From NCBI GenBank assembly GCA_039545335.1, contig BCIN01000001.1:1286604-1350603 (forward strand): a stretch of DNA of 64,000 nucleotides, in the 5' to 3' direction. Positions 3,153-58,330 of the stretch are shown here, piece by piece. The DNA is from Kondoa subrosea. Lineage: Eukaryota. The translations under genes were made by a program, and so were the position numbers. The first letter of the stretch is position 1; the number at the start of each line of letters is the position of its first letter. The notes beneath the pieces are model-generated. The model searched no databases. It saw only the letters and a list, made by a program, of their open reading frames with translations, and had not been told where the DNA came from.

Positions 3153-5282
3153 TCATGTGCTGTTCCCCAAGGGATGGATCTGAAGCTGACCTGAAGGATA
3201 ATTCGGATGTGGACTTATAGGAAAGAGGTTACTACTCTTCGAAGGCGGAGCATTGAACAAACTGAGCAAATTCGCTCTTTGTTGAACTTTAGGTGGACTG
3301 AAATCTTGAGGTGGTGGAGGAGATTGGAAATTGGCGAGCAGAGGAATAGGTCGGATAGCTGTAGGTTGCGAAACCTGTAAAGGTGGATATTGTTGTGATT
3401 GTTGTTGTTGTGGCTGAAGAGGGAAGACATGAGGTTGATAAGAAGGTTGTTGCATTAGATGCGGATTCATATGTGCTTGTTGCTGTTGTTGGTGTTGTAT
3501 TAGGTGAAAGGGAGGAGGACCGTGTGAGCTGTATATCTGGCCAAAGGTTTTACCTGGCCCTGCTCCTGTTTGTAGCGAAGCCGGCAGACTGCGCGAACCT
3601 TCCGCTTGACTTGTGTGATTGAATTGAGATCCATAATTCGGCTGAGGTTGCGGAGGTCTAGCTGTAAGAATATTGAGCAGCCTAGTAGCTTTCTGAGCTT
3701 TCATTTGAGGCGAATCTTCTTGATGCCCATTTGACATCTGGTGCAGCCCATTGTGCAACTGATGAGAAGGTGAGGATTGCCGTTGAAAAGGCGCTTGCGA
3801 AGCGAACAACGTTTGCAAGCCGTTGTGCGATGGAATCTGTTGTGTAGATTGACCTAGACCAGTAATCATGTCCAAGTTTCGCATTAATTCATTCCGTTTC
3901 TGATTACGCTCTTCGGCGTTCAATATAGTAGACGGAGCTGCTTGCCAAGTCGGTTGGCTAGATTGCGATTGACCTGAAGGTTCTTGCGAGGAATGCGATA
4001 TAGCTGGACTAGGTTCAATCTGCTGCCTATTTACATTGTCGGTTGAAAGAAGACGTAAAAGTTGATCATGCCTTGATTCTTCTTGCGGTGGAGGAGAATC
4101 ATCTAGTAACGAAGGGAGAGATTCAGGTACAGGTTGAGCTGGGGGTAAATCAGAGCCAAAGAAGAGAGCATGAAGAGCTCGATTGCCTTCTTCTACATTC
4201 TCGAACGCTCTCTTGGCTTTCTCGGTCGCTTGTAACATTGGTTCTGCTTCGGCAATGTCTTGAGATGTGGCTTGCGCTGTCTGTGGTTGACGAGGCTTCT
4301 TCCGTTGCTTATGTGATGATATCCAAGCTTTGAGAGCACTGAGATTAGAGCATAGGTAAGACCAAAAGAAAGCACGAGGGAATTCAAAACGGACCGAATA
4401 ACCGGAAAGACCATATAAAACCTCTTGCTACCTAGATCCTTCTTATTCCAGCCAGGTAGATCTTTCAAAGCATGCCAACTGATCTGACTAATCTCCTTTC
4501 TGGTCCTTGTCTCGAAGACAGTATCTTCTTTGACTCCAGGCACGATATAGAAGCGAACCATTTGAGAATGCACATTGACATCTATATAATCATCCACTTC
4601 TTTCAGACCTCTAGGTAGAGAGGGAGGGTTCGAGTGAGAATCCTGGGGATGAGATTTCCTTGATGGATCGAAATGAGGAGCGATATCGTAACCGGTTTCT
4701 TCCCAAACTTCTCTAACAGCACAATCCCTATCCGATTCGTTCTGATTGATTTTGCCTTTTGGGAAACCCCAAGCAGCGTTTGCTTTCCAACCTTTGACTA
4801 AAATCGCTTTATCCCAAGTTGGGTTGATGAGAATCGCACCACGAACAGGAACGGAAGCTTTGTATTGCAAGAAAGCATCATAAGCTGTTGCTGGATCGAA
4901 AGAGAAAGCTGAAAGATGAGTTGAACAAGCTGCTAAGAAATGTTCAGAGAAGCGACGGAGATTGTAAGCTGGTAAATCTGGTCGAATAGGTCGAATGAAA
5001 TCTTCGTAGAACCAATGCGATTGTTCTACTTGGAAACAGATGCGCTCTATGGATTCCAATTCTTCCGCTGGTAAGTTGACAATAAACCGACTATTTGTAT
5101 GTACGAAGCCGTTCACATGGGCATGCATGGAAACACAAAGTGAGATAGGAAGAGGAGAAGAGGTAGGCAGCACAATCAGCTGTAGCTCAGCCTTTGTAAC
5201 AGAGCAGCACTTGCGATGCTAGTTCACTGAACACGTCTTGAAGCGACATGCCCGCATAATGCGATGACACATTGGCTTCCAT
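3153..5282 (-). CDS. DCP2: mRNA decapping enzyme catalytic subunit (Box A + Nudix, Q/P-rich tail)
   Basis: ELASRFIVNLP, ERICFQVEQSHWFYEDF, WGFPKGKIN...CAVREVWEETGYD Nudix box, TRKEISQISW; introns 5091-5214 and about 4340-4395. Confidence 0.95.
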
Positions 5283-10106: not shown

Positions 10107-11382
10107 ATGCCTGTAGCTGTGCCCGAGAAGGCTCAATTACAGCGAGTAACACCAGGATGGCTTCATATGGTAGCAGGAGGGTCAGTGCTCTATGAACACT
10201 TTAAACAATAAAAAGGTAGCTGGCTGATGTCGAATCCAATGAGAGCAGAGTTGGAGGACTTGCTGGAGCATGTGTGACTGCACCTTTTGATTTGGTAAAG
10301 ACAAGATTGCAATCCGACGTCTTCAGCTCAAAGAGTCAACTCTACGCTGCTCAAGCTGCAAATCAACGTAAAGGCATTATCAAACTTTTGTATCATTTCG
10401 TAGAGACTGGTGTTATACTCAGGTGTGCGTCTCATCTACCTTTTTACTAATCTAATGTGACTGATTTCACCTTGCGTGCGCACAGAGACACTTATCGTTT
10501 AGAAGGTCCAACTTCACTCTTCAAAGGCTTAGGTCCAACATTAGTCGGCGTTATCCCAGCTCGATCTATTAATTTCTTCACTTATGGCAATGGGAAACCA
10601 ATCTTCACTAAATTGTTGACTTCGGATGGGAAAGAAAACACTTCAGTTCATTTAGCTTCTGCTGCTACTGCTGGAATCGTTACTGGTACAGCTACGAATC
10701 CTATTTGGGTCGTCAAGACTCGTTTGCAATTAGAAGAGAGGATAGAAAAGAAACCTTCTCCCATCACCACCACAATACCCTCGTCGACAACATCTTCCTC
10801 CCGAGCTTATTCCACAGCAACACTAAATAGAACAGGACCAATGAATTCTTTGGAATGTATACGGTTGATCTTCAAGACTGAAGGCATCAAAGGTTTCTAT
10901 CGAGGTCTTTCAGCTTCGTATCTGGGTGTAACGGAAGGAGTGATTCAATGGACTTTGTACGAACAATTCAAGAAGATGGCCGCGAGAAGGAAACAACCTG
11001 GAGATGGTGAAGGTTATGCTGGGAAAGGAGCTGCAGCTGGTTTAGCTAAATTGATAGCTACCGTCATTACCTATCCACATGAGGTTCGTTTCACTTTTGA
11101 TGATCAGCTTTCGAGTTGTTCACAAGAGCGTGGAATGGACAGGTCGTAAGAACAAGACTAAGGCAAGCACCACCGCAGAATCAAGCACCGCGGTATACTG
11201 GTCTGCTACAAACTTTCAACCTCGTCATTAAAGAAGAAGGTTTCGCTACCCTTTACTCAGGACTCAGTCCGCATCTCTTAAGAGTCGTACCGAACGCTAT
11301 TACCCTCTATATAGTATACGAGGGTATGCTTACATTCTTCTCGAAGGAAGTACCGGTAGATGCAGATGCGGAAGCTTTGTAG
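10107..11382 (+). CDS. RIM2: Mitochondrial pyrimidine nucleotide carrier (SLC25A33/36 type)
   Basis: Three carrier motifs PFDLVKTRLQ, PIWVVKTRLQ, PHEVVRTRLR; GLGPTLVGVIPARSINFFTY; YRGLSASYLG. Confidence 0.92.
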
Positions 11383-25043: not shown

Positions 25044-25462
25044 ATGACGCATAATACGTCAAATAGCTACACATATTCATCGAATATAATACATTCTTTG
25101 CTCGATCAACCGGATGCGCGCTTGATTATCAATCGTAGCGAGCGGAAGCGACATGAATTCATGAACAGCTGAGACTTACAGATTACTGAAAACGAAGAAG
25201 AAGAAGAAGGGCTAGTTTTTCCCAAAACACAAGACTGACGCCAAAGCATACATAACGAGGCAGAAGAATAGCACATAAGAATGCATGCACCGATGACTCG
25301 CTGTAATTTTTGGTTCGTGTCTTCTCGAAGCCAACAACCGTCTAGCTATACCCATTGACAGCCCTGGCGTATTGCAGAATATATACCAGACGTGTTCCTC
25401 TAGCTTCTTTCCGTGTTTCCTCCTGGCCAACAAGTTTCGCTCGACCAAATTTCTACAACAGC

Positions 25463-27704
25463 ATGAGCACGACTTCTATTGATGCTGAAATAACAAAGCA
25501 AGGCGATGTGATTCGCCAAATGAAAGCTGACAAGGCAGACAAGAGTGAAATTGATGCTCAAGTCGCTGTTCTGTCCAAACTGAAAGCAGATAAAGCTGCA
25601 TTGACTGGTCAGTGAGAAAGTGAATTGGAATGCAAGGAGGGAAGAAGCTGATCATCCGAATGCAGGAGAAGCTCCTGCTGCTAGTGGAAGCAAAAGCAAG
25701 AAAGGCAAGCAGCTCATTCAGCTCAAAGTGCCAAAAGTAAGTTAGGGTGTCGCTTTATCCATTGGATATAGCGTGATGCCTGGGAACTTACAGGGCACGA
25801 AAGATCATCTTCCTCATGAGATGCTGTTGCGAAATCGTAAGTCCAATGCAGTTGTACCAATTCAGTGTATGCTAAACTCGTCAACTAGAAATCTTCAAGA
25901 CCATTACCACTGTCTTCGAGCGTCACGGAGGCGTGACTATAGATACACCAGTCTTTGAACTGAAAGAAATCCTTTCCGGCAAATATGGAGAGGACAGTAA
26001 ATTGATCTATGATTTGCAAGACCAAGGCGGAGAGCTTTGTAGTTTACGCTACGATTTGACTGTGCGTCTATATATCTCAACATACACTCTTTACTAAGAT
26101 GCTCTGAAGGTTCCCTTCGCTCGTTTCCTCGCTATGAATGGCTCAACTTACCAAAGTATCAAACGATACCATATTGCGAAAGTCTACAGGAGAGATAACC
26201 CAGCTATGACCAAAGGTCGAATGCGCGAGTTCTATCAATGCGTGGGCTTCCGTCATTGAGCTTTTGTCCAAAGCTGATTTCTGTGCGTACTAGGATTTCG
26301 ATATTGCTGGACAGTACGATGCTATGGTTCCAGATGCTGAGATCCTCAAGATCGCCTGTGAAATCTTTGAAGGTCTGCAAATCGACGACTTTACGATCAA
26401 AGTGCGCCAGAGAGACGCTTAGCATAGTGAATTATGCTGAGGTGTCTTTATTGGAACGCACAGCTCAACCACCGTAAGATCTTGGATGGCATTTTTACTG
26501 TTTGCGGAGTACCGGAAGACAAAGTACGAACGATTTCCAGTGCTGTGGACAAGCTAGACAAGGTGAATTCTGCCCCTGCATCTTCAATGCTGAGCTAACC
26601 TCTTGCTACTAGTCTCCTTGGTCAGAAGTTCGGAAAGAGATGACAGAAGAGAAAGGTCTGGATGGAGATGTTGCGGATCAGATAGGAGAATACGTCAAGC
26701 TAAAAGGTGCACTCGGTCGCTGTGCAAGCAATCTCTTTTGCTCAGCACTGACTATCTTGCACAGGCCAGCAAGACCTTTTGGACCGCCTTCTTAAGGATG
26801 AGAAGCTTACGGCAAACAAGACTGCGAAAGAAGGTCTGGATGATATGGCGATATTCCTTAAATACCTCACAATCTTTGGTGTACTGCCTCGAGTAAGCTA
26901 CTACTGAATTTATAACGATCATTTGTGCTAATCTCATGTAGATCTCTTTCGATTTATCTCTCGCTCGAGGTCTAGATTATTACACAGGCGTGATCTACGA
27001 ATGCGTTACTGAAGCTTCTGCACCGCCTGGCTTCTCAGCTTCTTCCTCTACTCCTGCAATAACTCCCACACCTACTTTGACACCAGAACAAGCCAAATCT
27101 AAGCCTTCGAAATCTGATGGCGAAGAAGTGGATGAGAGTCAAGTTGGAGTTGGCTCAATTGCAGCTGGTGGTCGATACGATAACTTGGTGGGGATGTTCG
27201 CTGCTGCTGCTTCTACATCCAAAAACAAAGATGCTGGGAAAATACCTTGCGTTGGAATTTCGTTTGGTGTTGAGCGCATTTTCTCCATTTTGCAACAAAG
27301 AGCGATGAAGGAAAGAGCGGATCAGAAAATGAAGACGAAAGAAGTCGATGTTTTCGTCATGGCTATCGGAGGCGGATTATTAGAAGAGCGGATGCAGATA
27401 GCCAGTTCGCTTTGGGATGCTGGTATTCGAGTGAGTGTCTTATATTTGGTGTCTTGATTTCGCTCAGGCTCTTGTACAGACGGAGTACACTTACAAGGCG
27501 AAACCGAAAGCTGCTGCTCAATGGGACGCGATTGACAGAGATTCGATACCGTTTGTTGTCATTGTCGGACCAGAAGAAATCAAAGAAGGCAAAGTGCTAG
27601 TCAAAGAGCAAGTTGGAAAGGAAGCAGCAGAAGGACGAGGAGTACCTGTGGAGGTTCAGCAGCTGGTCGCGTACTTGAAGGAAAGGCTGCCGAATAGATC
27701 TTAG
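25463..27704 (+). CDS. HTS1: Histidyl-tRNA synthetase with N-terminal WHEP domain (cytosolic start; upstream extension discussed in findings)
   Basis: [81 protein letters not shown], anticodon-binding domain. Confidence 0.97.
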
Positions 27705-27713
27705 AATTGCAAC

Positions 27714-28904
27714 CTAGATATCGCTCGGTCGCGAGAAAGTGTTCCAATTCTCTTCCAATTGCTTGACCCTGTCTTGAAATAAGTTTGAGCTTCGGCAATA
27801 TAGTAAACACCCTCACGTTTGTTCCACTGTCCAGCCTTTAGCATGCGCAATCACCTCAACTATGTCCGCCATCTTCTCATCACTGCCCAAAGGTGAAGCC
27901 CAGTCCGATTCAGCCAAAATTTTGTCATCTTTACAAGCCTGAATCACGCTCTCTAATTTCGGACTTCTAGCGTTGATAGTGGTGGAGAATGAGGCGAAGA
28001 TATTTGATTTCTTTGGTTTCTGCAACTGCTTCAGTGTTTCCGCACTTCCTCCATAAGAATGCAGATCAATATTGATTTTTTCCCAAGCTGATCCATGTTT
28101 CTTTTGCATCTTTTTCAATACTTCAACTAATTGAGCTTGAGCCTGAACGCAATGAACAGATGCGTTTCTTTTCAACTTGACTGCTAGATTCAATTGAGCT
28201 TCTAAAACAGCTACTTGATGCTCTATAGGCGTTTTCAATTCCGTATACGTTATTGGCGCATCACCTCGATCTGGTATTGAATAAGGTGCTATTAATCCAC
28301 CATAAGTTGGGATCCGAAAAGATCGATCTAGGCCTATTTCGCCCAAAAATGCAGTTGGATAACGAGTCAAAAGGGATTCCAAGCGTTCCGCGAAAGTGGA
28401 GAGGAGGACTGGGTCGGGAAGACGATGGATCAGATCTTGAGTGAGGTGTGACGAGGACGAATAAAGTGAATTGTAGTGTGCTTCTTTTGCTGGTAGATCG
28501 GTTTCGAGTGATAAAGCGTGACAAAACCATGGATGAATGCCTTTTACTATTCGTAAGCCAAGAGTCTTTGGGAACAGAATCACATCACAGACCAAAGCAG
28601 GGAATAACTTTGTCGGGAAACGAGTTATACATGTCCTCAGTGATTTCCTGATTGACAAGATTCGAAGACATGACACAAATCTATAAGCCGGGGAATAAGG
28701 ATAAAGTGAAAAGGAGAGGTAAGATGAGCTCGCCTGCTTGCATGCTACATCAGCGACTTTAGCTTTTAGCTTCTCGTTGTACTTTGGAGAATCCTATGCA
28801 GCGAAACGGGAATAAGAAGACACAATGACTCTCGGACTAGAAGATCGTACATGTGGATGACAGTGGACATCATGAAGAGAAGAGAGATAGCGAGTAGTAG
28901 TCAT
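27714..28904 (-). CDS. TatD-family metal-dependent hydrolase (Scn1-like)
   Basis: DVHCHPH, FGIHPWF, LGEIGLDRSF, SVHCVQ, LHSYGGS, ILAESD; last exon TVKQLEENWNTFSRPSDI*. Confidence 0.88.
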
Positions 28905-29132
28905 GATACAGAGCTGAAACAGAACAGGCTCGAGTGAATCCGCCAAGCAGCGGTGTTCTTTCTCAATAGATTTATACAGAACTGAGAGGACACACGTTCG
29001 CAAGTCTGCACGAGCTCACAAAGGCAAAAGCAGGCCGTTCAAGACAAGGCATCTCTTTTCCAAAATCGACCAAGTTTCGAATTCCCTTGCCTCTACAGCT
29101 TGAGCCGCCACTCCTATACACGTAATACTACA

Positions 29133-30970
29133 ATGTCTGATCGCAAGAACGTCTTGAGTGAGTAGCTGTCTGGCTCAGACCAGCTCTGAGGCTGATATTG
29201 AATGTATAGTTGTGCGATATTATGATTTTTGCGAGACCCGCCGTGACTGACGCTATGGCTCATAGACTGGTGGTGCTGGTGAGTGATGGCCTCGCGTCTT
29301 CGTATTGAATTACTTGAACATCTGTGAACAGGTTACATTGGTCAATCACGTTTCTTGGCCCTGTAGACCTGCTGCTCATCTCGCGTCAATAGGCTCTCAT
29401 GTCGTGCTCTGCTGCTTGCTGGCCAAGAAGTATCGCGTTTGCACCATCGACAAGTAAGCTCACCTTCCGCTTGCCGACAAACCTTCTTATATCCCGAACT
29501 ATTGGCAGCTACCACAATTCTTTCCCTGAAGCTATCAAGCGCGTCTCTCAAATCGCTAGATCAGAATTAGGCGAATCCGCCTCAGAAGAAGATAAAGCTG
29601 CAACTGAAGTCGAAGTATTTAAAGGCGATATCACCAACCCTAAAGACATTGATGCCATCTTCGAAGCTTACAAGGACAAGGGAGGCATCTGGGGTCTGAT
29701 CCATATCGCTGCACACAAAGCTGTAGGCGAAAGCGGTGAAAAGCCTATCCAGTACTACAGAAACAACATCAATGCGACTGTAAACTTGATGGATGTCAGT
29801 TTGTCTTCCTTTGTGTGCTCTCTTTGAGCTCACGATCAAGTTGACTGACAGGCCTGCGATCGTTATGGAACAAGACATATTGTCTACTCTTCGTCTGCAA
29901 CAGTCTACGGAGCACCAACAACCATTCCTATTCCTGAAACCACTCCTTTAGTAGCAGAATCATGCTACGGTCGAACTAAAGTCATGTCGGAAATGATCTT
30001 GAAAGACATTTGCGATTCCGACCCAAAAAGTTGGAGATGCATCGCTCTTCGCTACTTCAACCCTGCTGGAGCTCATCCTTCTGGTCTGATCGGAGAAGAT
30101 CCAAGAGGAAGACCAGGTAACTTGCTACCTCTTTTGGCTCAAATGGCAGTTGGCAAAGTGGATGCATCAAAATTGGAAGTGTTTGGAAACGATTACCCTA
30201 CTCCCGATGGAACATGTGTTGTGAGTGGAAATGGATAAATTTTAGGGTGTTCTAATATTATCCGTGGTCGTAACTCACAGCGCGATTACATTCACGTAAG
30301 CTCACCCAACCTCTTCCCAAATGAAATCCGCTCAAAGGTCATATTATTAGGTTATGGATCTTGCTCAAGGTCACATCGACGCAATCAACGCACTAGACAG
30401 GGATGAAATCTTTGTTACCAAACAATCCGGTTCTTCTTTCGGTGGTTCAGGCGGAAAATTCAAGGCCTACAACTTGGGTAAAGGAAAGGGTATGAGTGTG
30501 CTCAAGTACGTATGACCATCTCTGTCTAGCATATATGCTAATTTGAGGAATAGCATGATCGAAGCCATGCACGTTGCCAGCGGATTCGATTACAAGTATA
30601 AGTAAGTATGATCTTTTGGAATAAGGAATTGCAGCTGAAGTAAGATGATAGGCTTGTTGGACGAAGGTGTGTAAAGACCTGTTCAGTCAGCATTCAGATG
30701 ATTGAGCGGAGGCTTATTGCACACAGAATCGGAGATGTGCCAGATTTGACTGCTGATCCAGCTTTGGCCGAAAAGGAGCTGGGTTTCCTTGCTAAGAATG
30801 ACTTGAAGACCATGTGCCGGTACGTCTGCGTTGAATGTCAGAAGTGCTAGCTAAATTTGGCTCGCTAGCGATCAATGGAATTGGCAATCAAAGAACCCTA
30901 AGGTATGTTGTGCCTATGTTCTGTAGACATTCACTCAAGTGCTGGGCAGGGTTACGAGACTTCTAGCTAG
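29133..30970 (+). CDS. UGE1: UDP-glucose 4-epimerase (stand-alone, no mutarotase fusion), micro-exon-rich
   Basis: Spliced [69 protein letters not shown]. Confidence 0.96.
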
Positions 30971-33995: not shown

Positions 33996-35376
33996 ATGTC
34001 AGCCTCTACGTCTCGTTTACTACCACGAGTGACTCCTAGAGCTGCATCAATAAAGTCAAGCACAGCTGGCAAGCAGCAACAAGTTCGAAATGCCTCTGAT
34101 TTGAGAGTTTCGCACGATGGAAGACCTTTAATCAGATTCGGTCCTGGCGGAAGAAGTACTACCACTGGTCAAGTAGCTACTGTTTTTGGTTGCACTGGCT
34201 TCTTGGGAAGATACCTGGTCCATAAATTGGGTCAGTTTGAAGTGAAGCTGTTCATATGAGTCTGAATAGCTTCCCATTGGTACATCTCACAGCCAAGCAA
34301 GGGACACAAGTAGTGATTCCTTACAGAGAAGAAGATGATAAGCGGCATTTGAAAGTGATGGGAGATTTGGGTCAGATTATACCAATGGTCAGTTCCTCTT
34401 AGACGCTGTCATATTGCCTGCAGTCTGAGCTTGATTGACAGGAATGGAGTCTACGCAATGATACTCAGATAGAAGAATGTCTAAGACACTCAAATGTAGT
34501 TTACAATCTAGTTGGCCGAGATCATGAAACCAAGTCAGTACAAGCTATACCTCTGTCTAGTATTATGTCGCTGATGAGAATGACAGAAACTATCGCTTTC
34601 CTGATGTACATGTCGAAGGGGCTCGACGAATAGCTCGAATTGCTCATCAAGCAGGAGTAGCTCGCCTAATCCACGTCTCACACCTCAACGCAAGACATGA
34701 TTCACCTTCTAAATTCTATCGATCTAAAGCAGAAGGCGAAGAAGCCGTCGCAGAAGCTTTCCCAGGAAGCACTATAGTTAGACCTGGTTGGTTGTTTGGT
34801 CATGAAGATCGTTTACTCAATACCGTTGCAAACTATCCAATGGCTTTCAGATTGAACAATCAAGAAACTCTAATTAAACCAGCTCATGTTTTGGATGTTG
34901 CTGAAGCAATGAAAATCATGATGAATGCCGATTCGACAATGGGCCAAACTTTCTCTTTAGGTGGACCGAAAACTTATTCTTTTGAAGAGATTATTGCAAT
35001 TGCTGAATTGGAAACTGTTCGAAAACTACAAGGATTCAACGTACCTAAATTCTTGGCTTCAATGGTTACTAGAGTTTGGGAAAATGTTTGGTGGCCTACT
35101 TTGAGTCCTGATGAGATTACGAGAAGATGTATGGATGATTTAGCGGATGAAAAGGGAACTTTGAGTTGGGAATATTTGGGAATGAAACCGGATTCTTTGG
35201 AAGAGTTGGCTGTCATTTACCTCAGGAGGCATCGTTCGGCTCAATACTATGATCGTGAGTAATCATTTGCATTCCCTTATGATTAAACTGATGCAATTGT
35301 TTTCCATTTTACAGGCCCTTCTGCTTTGCAAGGAGGATTGAAATTGAGGAAGCCTTCGTATCATACCATTGAATAG
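33996..35376 (+). CDS. NDUFA9: NADH:ubiquinone oxidoreductase 39/40 kDa subunit
   Basis: Mitochondrial presequence; GGRSTTTGQVATVFGCTGFLGRYLV; HLKVMGDLGQI; VVYNLVGRD; IVRPGWLFGHEDR. Confidence 0.95.
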
Positions 35377-55834: not shown

Positions 55835-58330
55835 ATGCGAGTCAACGCATCCAAGGCGCTGCTGCGTCAAACGAGGAGTGCATACATCTATGGTCGAGCT
55901 AGCAGACGAGTCAGTTCCTTTGCTTCGGAGGAGAGGGAACGGCCTGAAACTAACTTGTGCATGAACGCAGAATGCCAGCTCGTCTACTAAAGCTGTAACA
56001 GACCCAGTGGCAGAGACTCCAGCTATTCCTACACCTGTGGTACCTATAGTGGAAGTGAAGCCTATCATTATAAAGAAGAAGCGTCGACCTTTCCGGCGCT
56101 TTTTGATTTGGACTTCCCTGCTTGCTGCAACTCTTTATGGAGGTCTCACTTATGCATCAACACAGAATGAAAGGGTTAGAGAATTCTATACTCAAGCTAT
56201 GCCTGGAGCCTCGACCATTATGGATTCTTTAGATGAAAAGTCGCTTACCGCTCTGGGTGCACCTAAAGGCAAGAGTCGCAGCGTGAGCCAAGAAGCTTTG
56301 GTCAAGTCAAATGAGAAAGCTAGGCAGATAGGCATTGAAGCGAGAGAACGCAAAGAAAGGGCTAGACAGCATGCTGAGCGAACTGCTCAAGAAGCGAAAG
56401 ATGCTCTTGGTTCTGCTACACAGCAAGTTCAAGACAAGGCAAACTCAGTCAAAGATGCTGTGGTTCATGCTGCTTCTGCCGCTTCAGCTATAGCTTCCGA
56501 GAAAGCTCAAGATGTCAAGAACGCTGTCAATTCTCTCGCTCACGATGGGAAACAAACAGTCGACTCCCTTAGCAGAGATGGAAAGGCAAAAGCGAATACT
56601 TTAGCAAAAGAAAGCAAAGATGCTGCCAAATCAGCTGAACATTCAGCAGCTACCAATGCTCGAGATGCCAAACAAGCTGTTATGCAGAAAGCAGAATCAG
56701 CGGCTGACAAAACCAAAGCTGCACTTTCCTCTGCTGAAGCAAAGACCAAGGCCGCCTTATCAGATGTTGAAGCAAAGAGCAAGTCTGCTTTAGCCAGTGT
56801 CGAATCGAAAGCCAAATCCGCTGTAGCAAGTGCCGAATCTTCTCTCTCTTCTCTAGAAATTCAAGCAGAGGACGCTTTGCATTCAGCAGCCGACAGCATC
56901 AAATCAGTTCTACCTTCCGAACCGGGAGTACCTCAACCGCGTCGACCTCACAATGGCGAATTAGATCCTACTCCTCAGCCACCTATCGAACCAGTAGGAC
57001 AACCTTACACTGGTCCTCCTCTTCCAATCGGATCAGAACCACCACCAGGTTATTATCTCGCCAAACCCAAAAAAGCAGCACCAGTAAAAGCTGTGCCTCC
57101 TTCTCCTTTACCTTTAGTTGCTCCTACTGTATCGGAATTATCAGCTCAAGAACCTGTTCTAGGTCAAATTGCAAGCACGATTGATTCTTTAGCTGGTTTC
57201 CTCAACTCTTCACCTGCTGCATTGAACAATGATGGACCTATCAAATCAGTTTTACAAACTGCTGAACTGGATCTGAAATCACTTGGTGAACGACTAGAGA
57301 AAGTGAAAGAGGAAGAACATAAACTTTTGGAAGAAAGGTTAGACAAGCAGAAACAAGAGTATCAAGTTCAACTTGAAGAAAAGGAGAAGGATTTGTGGGA
57401 TAAACTTGGTCAGCAAGAAGAGGATTGGAGATCTGCTTTTGATAGCGAACGCCAACAATTAGCTGGAGCGTATAGAACCAAACTTGAAAAGGAGTTGGAA
57501 ACGCAAAAGGAGATCATTAATGAACGATTGAGGGAAGAAGTCATTGCTCAGGGTATTGAGATGCAGAGAAGATGGCTCAGAGACATCAAGATGCGTGTTG
57601 AGAAAGAACGAGGTGGAAGGTTGTCTAGATTGGAAGAGCTTTCAGGCAGTCTCAAAACCTTGGAGAAAGTCACTTTGGACAACGATGATTACCTTTCCCA
57701 GTCACTCAAGGTCAATACTCTGTGGTCTGCACTTCGCGCAACCCAATCTGCTGAAGGCCGACCATTCACTGATGAACTTCGGGCACTGAAGGAAATCTCA
57801 ACAAACGATTCAACCATGTCTACTGCATTGTCATCTATTCCTGCCGAAACTGCTTCAACTGGCATCACACCTTTCGCAGCTCTTTCAGCGTGGTTCACTA
57901 CCAAACTTTCACCTCGCATTAAAATGGCTGCTCTAATGCCTGACAACGGCGGATGCATCTCCTATGCCGCAAGTACTATTCTCAGTCCTCTTCTTATTGC
58001 TCGCTCTGGATTTTCGACCGGCGACGATGTAATGAGCGTGCTCAACCGGGCGAATTATTACCTCAACCTAAAAGATCTGGATCGGGCAGCCAGAGAAGTC
58101 AATCAGCTGACTGTACGTGTCATTCATCGCTATTCTTGTTGAAGCTGATGTTCTTCCGCAGGGTTGGCCGAAAATCTTGGCTCGAGACTGGTTGCAAGCG
58201 GCAAGGCAACATCTCGAAGTCAAGCAAGCGCTAGAGGTATGTCTCGTAGCCTTTCCTGACTATAGAGCTGACGTTCGTTCTCTAGATTATTGAAACGGAA
58301 GCAAAAATCAAGAGTTTCTCAATACTTTGA
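55835..58330 (+). CDS. MIC60: MICOS complex subunit Mic60 (mitofilin)
   Basis: Presequence MRVNASKALLRQ, TM after KKRRPFRRF, coiled coil, QGIEMQRRW..VEKERGGRLSRL, DLDRAAREVNQLTGWPKILARDWL. Confidence 0.95.

Follow-up and report, generated by a model that had tools for sequence, protein, structure and literature searches.

The dinucleotide TT at positions 29210-29211 of the window examined in this study (the whole stretch of DNA analysed, 64,000 nucleotides in length) is probably a real, constitutively included 2-nt exon of an intact, intron-rich gene of the GalE type. Canonical GT-AG introns directly adjoin the TT on both sides (Table 1), and the pieces, when joined by script, read MSDRKNVL, Ile, TGGAG, YIG, SH and onward. 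The coordinates and sequence strings that the preliminary description gave for 29133-29400 were checked directly in the sequence and are exact, and the script-joined exons 1-5 do give the NAD-binding motif that it had named. From the anatomy of this region, the logic of its reading frame and the fit of its product to homologues, all of which can be observed, we infer that both junctions beside the TT are used and that the two flanking introns are removed in sequence.

The full model of the gene contains 14 exons (25, 2, 13, 9, 61, 286, 369, 15, 155, 48, 15, 93, 34 and 21 nt) and 13 introns, all of which are 47-60 nt long. The spliced product is 381 amino acids in length with no internal stops, and it can be aligned over its entire length with the Cronartium quercuum protein P0066 (70% identity). 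Identity to the seven fungal homologues compared, three of which carry the source name UDP-glucose 4-epimerase and one no name, ranges from 66 to 71%, with P0020 (71%) and P0066 being the closest over the full length. When exon 7 was considered alone, 32 solved UDP-glucose 4-epimerase sequences matched it at E <= 1e-10 (best 3enk, E = 4e-42), and the GalE model TIGR01179 matched at E = 2e-42 with 145 bits, where the full-length cut-off is 262 and only one exon was scored. Pucciniomycotina proteins ranked first in the search with the epimerase exon. The strings SSSATVYG and YGRTK of exon 7 align with the same positions in P0066 and 3enk, and we take the Ser of the former and the Tyr-x-x-x-Lys of the latter to be the catalytic residues of the epimerase family. 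The beta-strand and the Gly-x-x-Gly-x-x-Gly loop for NAD binding appear only in the predicted spliced model that includes the TT, 13-nt and 9-nt exons. On these grounds, the predicted gene is an intact UDP-glucose 4-epimerase gene (GalE type, extended short-chain dehydrogenase/reductase). Since the full model is intact, carries the catalytic motifs and matches both GalE sequences and TIGR01179, the gene is under selection and needs a working N-terminus; because the next in-frame Met is residue 131, it cannot function without the present N-terminus.

The TT is accompanied in this gene by four other, well-supported tiny exons, located at 29266-29278 (13 nt), 29332-29340 (9 nt), 30281-30295 (15 nt) and 30652-30666 (15 nt). 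Each of these encodes part of a conserved motif, RDYIH and LVGRR being examples, and all four are required for the end-to-end alignment with orthologues.

Table 1. Positions of the epimerase gene and its parts, of neighbouring genes in the window, and of introns at the intron 4 position in metagenome loci
Feature	Position	Strand	Remarks
Dcp2-like Nudix protein	4193-5218	-	
Mitochondrial carrier	10451-11149	+	
Histidyl-tRNA synthetase with WHEP domain	25346-27600	+	
TatD-like nuclease	27813-28793	-	divergent from epimerase
Epimerase exon 1	29133-29157	+	25 nt; start codon, MSDRKNVL, then A as first base of Ile codon
Intron 1	29158-29209	+	52 nt; GTGAGT..GCTGAT..TATAG; CTGAT 14 nt from 3' AG
Candidate 2-nt exon TT	29210-29211	+	A+TT would form the Ile codon; frame and conserved residue would depend on TT
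Intron 2	29212-29265	+	54 nt; GTGCGA..ACTGAC..TCATAG; CTGAC 15 nt from 3' AG
Exon 3	29266-29278	+	13 nt; TGGA and first base of next Gly codon
Intron 3	29279-29331	+	53 nt; GTGAGT..AACAG
Exon 4	29332-29340	+	9 nt; completes Gly, then Y, I and first base of next Gly
Intron 4	29341-29392	+	52 nt; GTCAAT..AATAG; phase 1, within Gly codon after YI
Exon 5	29393-29453	+	61 nt; SHVVLCC to TID
Exons 6-14 to stop codon	29454-30970	+	29509-29794, 29852-30220, 30281-30295, 30351-30505, 30554-30601, 30652-30666, 30727-30819, 30869-30902, 30950-30970; intervening introns 47-60 nt
Second Rossmann-fold gene	34000-35300	+	weak RmlD_sub_bind and NAD_binding_10 matches
Mic60	55965-58142	+	one 725-codon frame
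Intron at intron 4 position, metagenome loci	L002 938-1010; L003 1749-1855; L010 3541-3605		also in L006

Introns 1 and 2 (52 and 54 nt) are similar in length to the other 11 introns of the gene, which range from 47 to 60 nt, and contain its clearest branch-like motifs (CTGAT and CTGAC, located 14-15 nt from the AG). When splice sites were scored with a matrix built from those other 11 introns, the two sites adjoining the TT were found to be among the weakest in the gene. Intron 1 has a donor of 5.2 bits and an acceptor, beside the TT, of 1.3 bits, and intron 2 has a donor (GTGCGA, beside the TT) of 1.7 bits and an acceptor of 6.7 bits. Between positions 29000 and 31000, 36% of the 134 AG and 31% of the 109 GT dinucleotides score at least as high as the TT-adjoining sites. 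Further sites of the gene are just as weak, among them the donor of intron 4 (2.0 bits), an intron whose position is kept in four other basidiomycete loci. The 108-nt stretch 29158-29265 comprises introns 1 and 2 and the TT; its inner 96 bases were shuffled 200,000 times to assess how likely such an arrangement is to arise by chance. An AG-NN-GT arrangement giving Ile, Val, Leu or Met, with both sub-introns 45-65 nt in length, was obtained in 5,188 of the 200,000 shuffles, while the same arrangement combined with YAG, a G at +5 and CTRAY upstream was obtained in only 68 of them, which argues that the TT arrangement is more than chance. It is also exceedingly improbable that a sequencing or assembly error in 29158-29265 mimics a 2-nt exon, since the 54 nt between the TT and ACT carry full intron signals at a typical length, unlike a small indel error, and the stretch contains neither an N nor a repeat.

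The number of ways in which exon 5 can be reached is small when introns resemble those of the rest of the gene. A backward search from exon 5, which admitted at most four introns, of the GT/GC-AG type and 35-500 nt long, identified three paths placing Gly-x-Gly-x-x-Gly directly before exon 5, and the sole compact path among them uses the 13-nt and 9-nt exons. If GT-AG introns are limited to 40-100 nt, the 13-nt exon can be entered by eight ATG-started, stop-free paths, and if they are limited to 45-65 nt, by two. Scored against a profile that covers the eight residues preceding the Gly loop and was built from the N-termini of 83 of 120 homologues, the TT path reached 14.0 bits compared to 2.1 bits for the runner-up among the eight. 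A lax enumeration, with introns of 35-500 nt, GC donors and three further introns allowed, produced 130,157 paths, of which the 126,049 with at least eight residues were scored; the top 16 all use the TT, and the next distinct peptide scored 11.3 bits. In an equally lax run, 1,712 of 120,207 paths ended in three hydrophobic residues followed by T/P/S-G. The assertion in the preliminary description that only inclusion of the TT yields the motif is thus borne out for realistic introns (eight paths at 40-100 nt and two at 45-65 nt) but is too strong combinatorially.

These 1,712 motif-like paths among 120,207 stop-free ATG paths (GT/GC-AG introns of 35-500 nt, up to three further introns), together with the weakness of the splice sites adjoining the TT, speak for another route to the mRNA, involving a different first exon or start codon or non-canonical splice sites, in which the TT would not be an exon. 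However, such a route is considered quite improbable. In addition to the ranking of the TT paths (14.0 bits compared to 11.3 for the next distinct peptide), the motif-like paths that avoid the TT need introns several-fold longer than those of the gene or exons located inside the TatD-like gene; more specifically, they need GC donors, introns of 62-490 nt (compared to 47-60 nt in the gene) or exons within 27813-28793 on the opposite strand. Furthermore, exon 1 as modelled here resembles the N-termini of homologues, such as that of the Cronartium model P0066. No ATG was found upstream of exon 1 when the sequence of 28980-29132 was read.

As the preliminary description had predicted, skipping the TT causes a frameshift and retaining intron 2 leads to a TGA; the stop comes after 42 codons in the former case and after 21 codons in the latter. 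Retention of intron 1 leads to a stop after 10 codons. If the 13-nt exon is skipped together with the TT, the loss of 15 nt leaves the frame intact, and the product, 376 amino acids long, is missing five residues of the NAD-binding loop, much as the Puccinia striiformis model P0038 is.

The sequence offers a single 108-nt GT-AG intron (29158-29265) whose acceptor is good (6.7 bits), and this, along with the weak sites around the TT, is what would be expected if the 5' end of the gene were defective, with exon 1 mostly joined to the 13-nt exon in a frameshifted message and the locus being either a decaying copy or one whose enzyme is supplied by another gene. This scenario is very unlikely, as the other 13 exons, including the four other tiny ones, are intact and conserved, and the position of the next in-frame Met (residue 131) makes a shorter functional product impossible. 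Additionally, an AG-TT-GT with this spacing, branch motifs and an accepted residue rarely occurs by chance (68 of 200,000 shuffles).

It was also suggested in the preliminary description that skipping of the TT could act as a regulated on/off switch for the gene. The stop after 42 codons would suit such a role, with TT-skipped mRNA probably being prone to decay, and weak flanking sites would permit inefficient inclusion; moreover, there is a report of a regulated micro-exon in a regulator from Trichoderma (PMC11121469). Nevertheless, regulation of this kind is judged to be quite improbable. The RNA structure around the TT is ordinary, the fold of 29140-29290 being no better than that of shuffled sequences (z = -0.78), so that sites paired by structure were not found there, and no conserved regulatory element was found. 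The reported ultra-short exons point the same way: constitutive inclusion is reported for the 1-nt exon of Arabidopsis APC11 (PMC4674806), and accurate splicing across several growth conditions for that of Fusarium (PMC12940212).

A metagenome scan yielded 80 loci, eight of which were inspected, seven in detail; the closest are 72-76% identical on exon 7 and belong to other basidiomycete lineages. The preliminary description had proposed a comparison of intron positions in orthologues of related fungi, and among these seven related loci the outcome was divided, with intron 4 present in four of them and introns 1-3 in none. The position and phase of intron 4 (phase 1, in the Gly codon after Tyr-Ile) are common to L002 and L003, which are Sporidiobolales-like, and to L006 and L010, which are mushroom-like, and in all four of these loci the coding sequence from the beta-strand to YIG is uninterrupted. 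A further intron, corresponding in position to intron 5, is found in L002 and L003. L004, L005 and L028 have no intron at the intron 4 position. The absence of introns at positions 1-3 from all seven loci indicates that these introns are not general in basidiomycetes.

The residue predicted to be encoded by A+TT is matched by Ile in the homologues P0020 and P0005 and by Val in P0066. Orthologue protein models disagree with each other at the N-terminus, as is seen in P0038, P0025 and P0042 (Puccinia striiformis, P. coronata) and also in P0011 (Mixia). One Puccinia striiformis model, P0038, is missing precisely those five residues for which the TT and the 13-nt exon code here, and P0025, P0042 and P0011 have unrelated N-termini up to the Gly loop. 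The garbled N-termini suggest that these fungi, too, may carry unannotated micro-exons; if rusts had the same tiny exons, this is the pattern that would be expected from gene finders. When L002 (approximately 878-937) and L003 (approximately 1689-1748) were read upstream from the beta-strand, no in-frame Met was observed before Pro-Arg-Lys; named homologues begin Met-Pro-Ser/Ala-Pro-Arg-Lys. The start codon of L002 and L003 may be located on a very short first exon of its own.

The short introns of this gene suggest how such an exon could be spliced. With all introns being approximately 50 nt in length, recognition would be expected to take place across the intron rather than across the exon, and introns 1 and 2 would therefore be removed as two ordinary GT-AG introns. 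The 2-nt exon would never need to be recognised as an exon, because a complete set of signals (donor, branch site, acceptor) is present in each of the flanking introns. Only 2 nt lie between the intron 1 acceptor and the intron 2 donor, so that simultaneous occupancy by two spliceosomes should be impossible; given this lack of room, the two removals would have to be consecutive, in either order, and the sequence favours neither. After the first removal, the remaining intron would adjoin an exon of 27 nt or 15 nt. In the resulting mature mRNA, A+TT would encode Ile and bring the beta-strand and the Gly-rich NAD-binding loop into frame. Strict recursive splicing and a stwintron were rejected as descriptions of this region, since the two T residues have to be retained in the mRNA and no new GT or AG arises at the junction when either intron is removed. 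An origin of the introns from an introner or repeat was likewise rejected, because only chance matches of 11-16 nt were found elsewhere in the window; introns 1-4 show no clear resemblance to one another (z up to 3.4, in part because their ends are shared).

A different history is also conceivable, in which an older exon of 15 nt would have been divided into pieces of 2 and 13 nt when intron 2 was gained in this lineage, the weak sites adjoining the TT would force an ordered, recursive-like form of splicing, and the 108-nt skip, followed by nonsense-mediated decay, would eliminate a considerable fraction of the transcripts. This combination is unlikely, although the Puccinia striiformis model without those five codons is a hint that rust fungi have the same coding stretch, likewise hidden. 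In that case, the efficiency with which the 2-nt exon is spliced would set the level of a central sugar-nucleotide enzyme.

The neighbourhood of the gene in the window is gene-dense and ordinary. A galactose gene cluster was considered and rejected, as Pfam matches on neighbouring frames revealed no galactokinase or transferase, only the histidyl-tRNA synthetase, the TatD-like nuclease and a Rossmann-fold protein. In the second Rossmann-fold gene (34000-35300), the Gly-rich motif lies in one uninterrupted reading frame; therefore, splitting of this motif is not general in the window. The best named relative of the Mic60 frame is from Cystobasidium minutum (47% identity), followed by Sporidiobolales yeasts, and one metagenome protein is 67% identical. 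From these matches and those of the epimerase exon, the fungus is placed in the Pucciniomycotina near the Cystobasidiomycetes; the collections searched contained no annotated close relative.

If the predicted splicing is confirmed, the TT would be a clean case of a 2-nt exon that falls within the best-known cofactor-binding motif of a housekeeping enzyme, in a poorly sampled branch of the basidiomycetes. There is also value for annotation, as gene finders will truncate or garble the epimerase, just as the rust orthologue models appear to be garbled, and phase mismatches in conserved motifs constitute a usable signal for finding ultra-short exons. The preliminary description called exons of this size rare and said that gene finders miss them, in agreement with reports from fungi and plants (PMC12230235, PMC12940212, PMC8831610), from which it is also evident that 2-nt exons are not unprecedented. 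Of the papers retrieved by the literature search made here, none dealt specifically with a 2-nt exon in an epimerase gene of a fungus.

Compared to systems described elsewhere, the proposed splicing of the TT exon is similar to recursive splicing and stwintrons in that two consecutive reactions act on abutting signals and one must come first (PMC6224609, PMC5639578); however, in the cases described in those sources either no nucleotide is kept or an internal intron interrupts a splice signal, whereas here 2 nt would stay. The plant micro-exons described in PMC8831610, along with the APC11 exon (PMC4674806), provide a second parallel, as these are constitutive, are also shorter than 3 nt, are flanked by two ordinary introns and are needed for the N-terminal part of the protein. 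The plant cases are distinguished by experimental splicing assays, RT-PCR and deep conservation (PMC4674806, PMC8831610). Plant micro-exons are reported to be widely mis-annotated, and aligners reportedly miss them unless they are supplied as annotation (PMC8831610).

The closest parallels are found in fungi. Fusarium CYP621A genes require a 1-nt exon, which was confirmed by public RNA reads (PMC12940212), and, like the TT exon, it was inferred from a phase mismatch in a conserved motif, has AG and GT flanks and is missed by automatic annotation; it differs from the TT exon in being 1 nt long, in belonging to an ascomycete P450 and in being conserved in 20-24 orthologues. The long-read annotation of Coprinopsis cinerea is reported to include 89 gene models with exons of at most 3 nt, with 57 two-nucleotide exons spread over 50 genes, along with 13 exons of 1 nt and 27 of 3 nt (PMC12230235). 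The Coprinopsis exons belong to an annotation built with long-read transcripts (PMC12230235), while the TT exon is predicted from DNA. With 1-2-nt exons already known in fungi and plants, the TT exon would add to a rare but documented class of features and involves no new mechanism. Similar to the 2-nt exons of Coprinopsis cinerea, it is found in a basidiomycete gene with introns of approximately 50 nt, is internal and would break the frame if omitted (PMC12230235); in contrast to them, it comes from a different subphylum (Pucciniomycotina-like) and sits in the NAD-binding motif of a housekeeping sugar enzyme.
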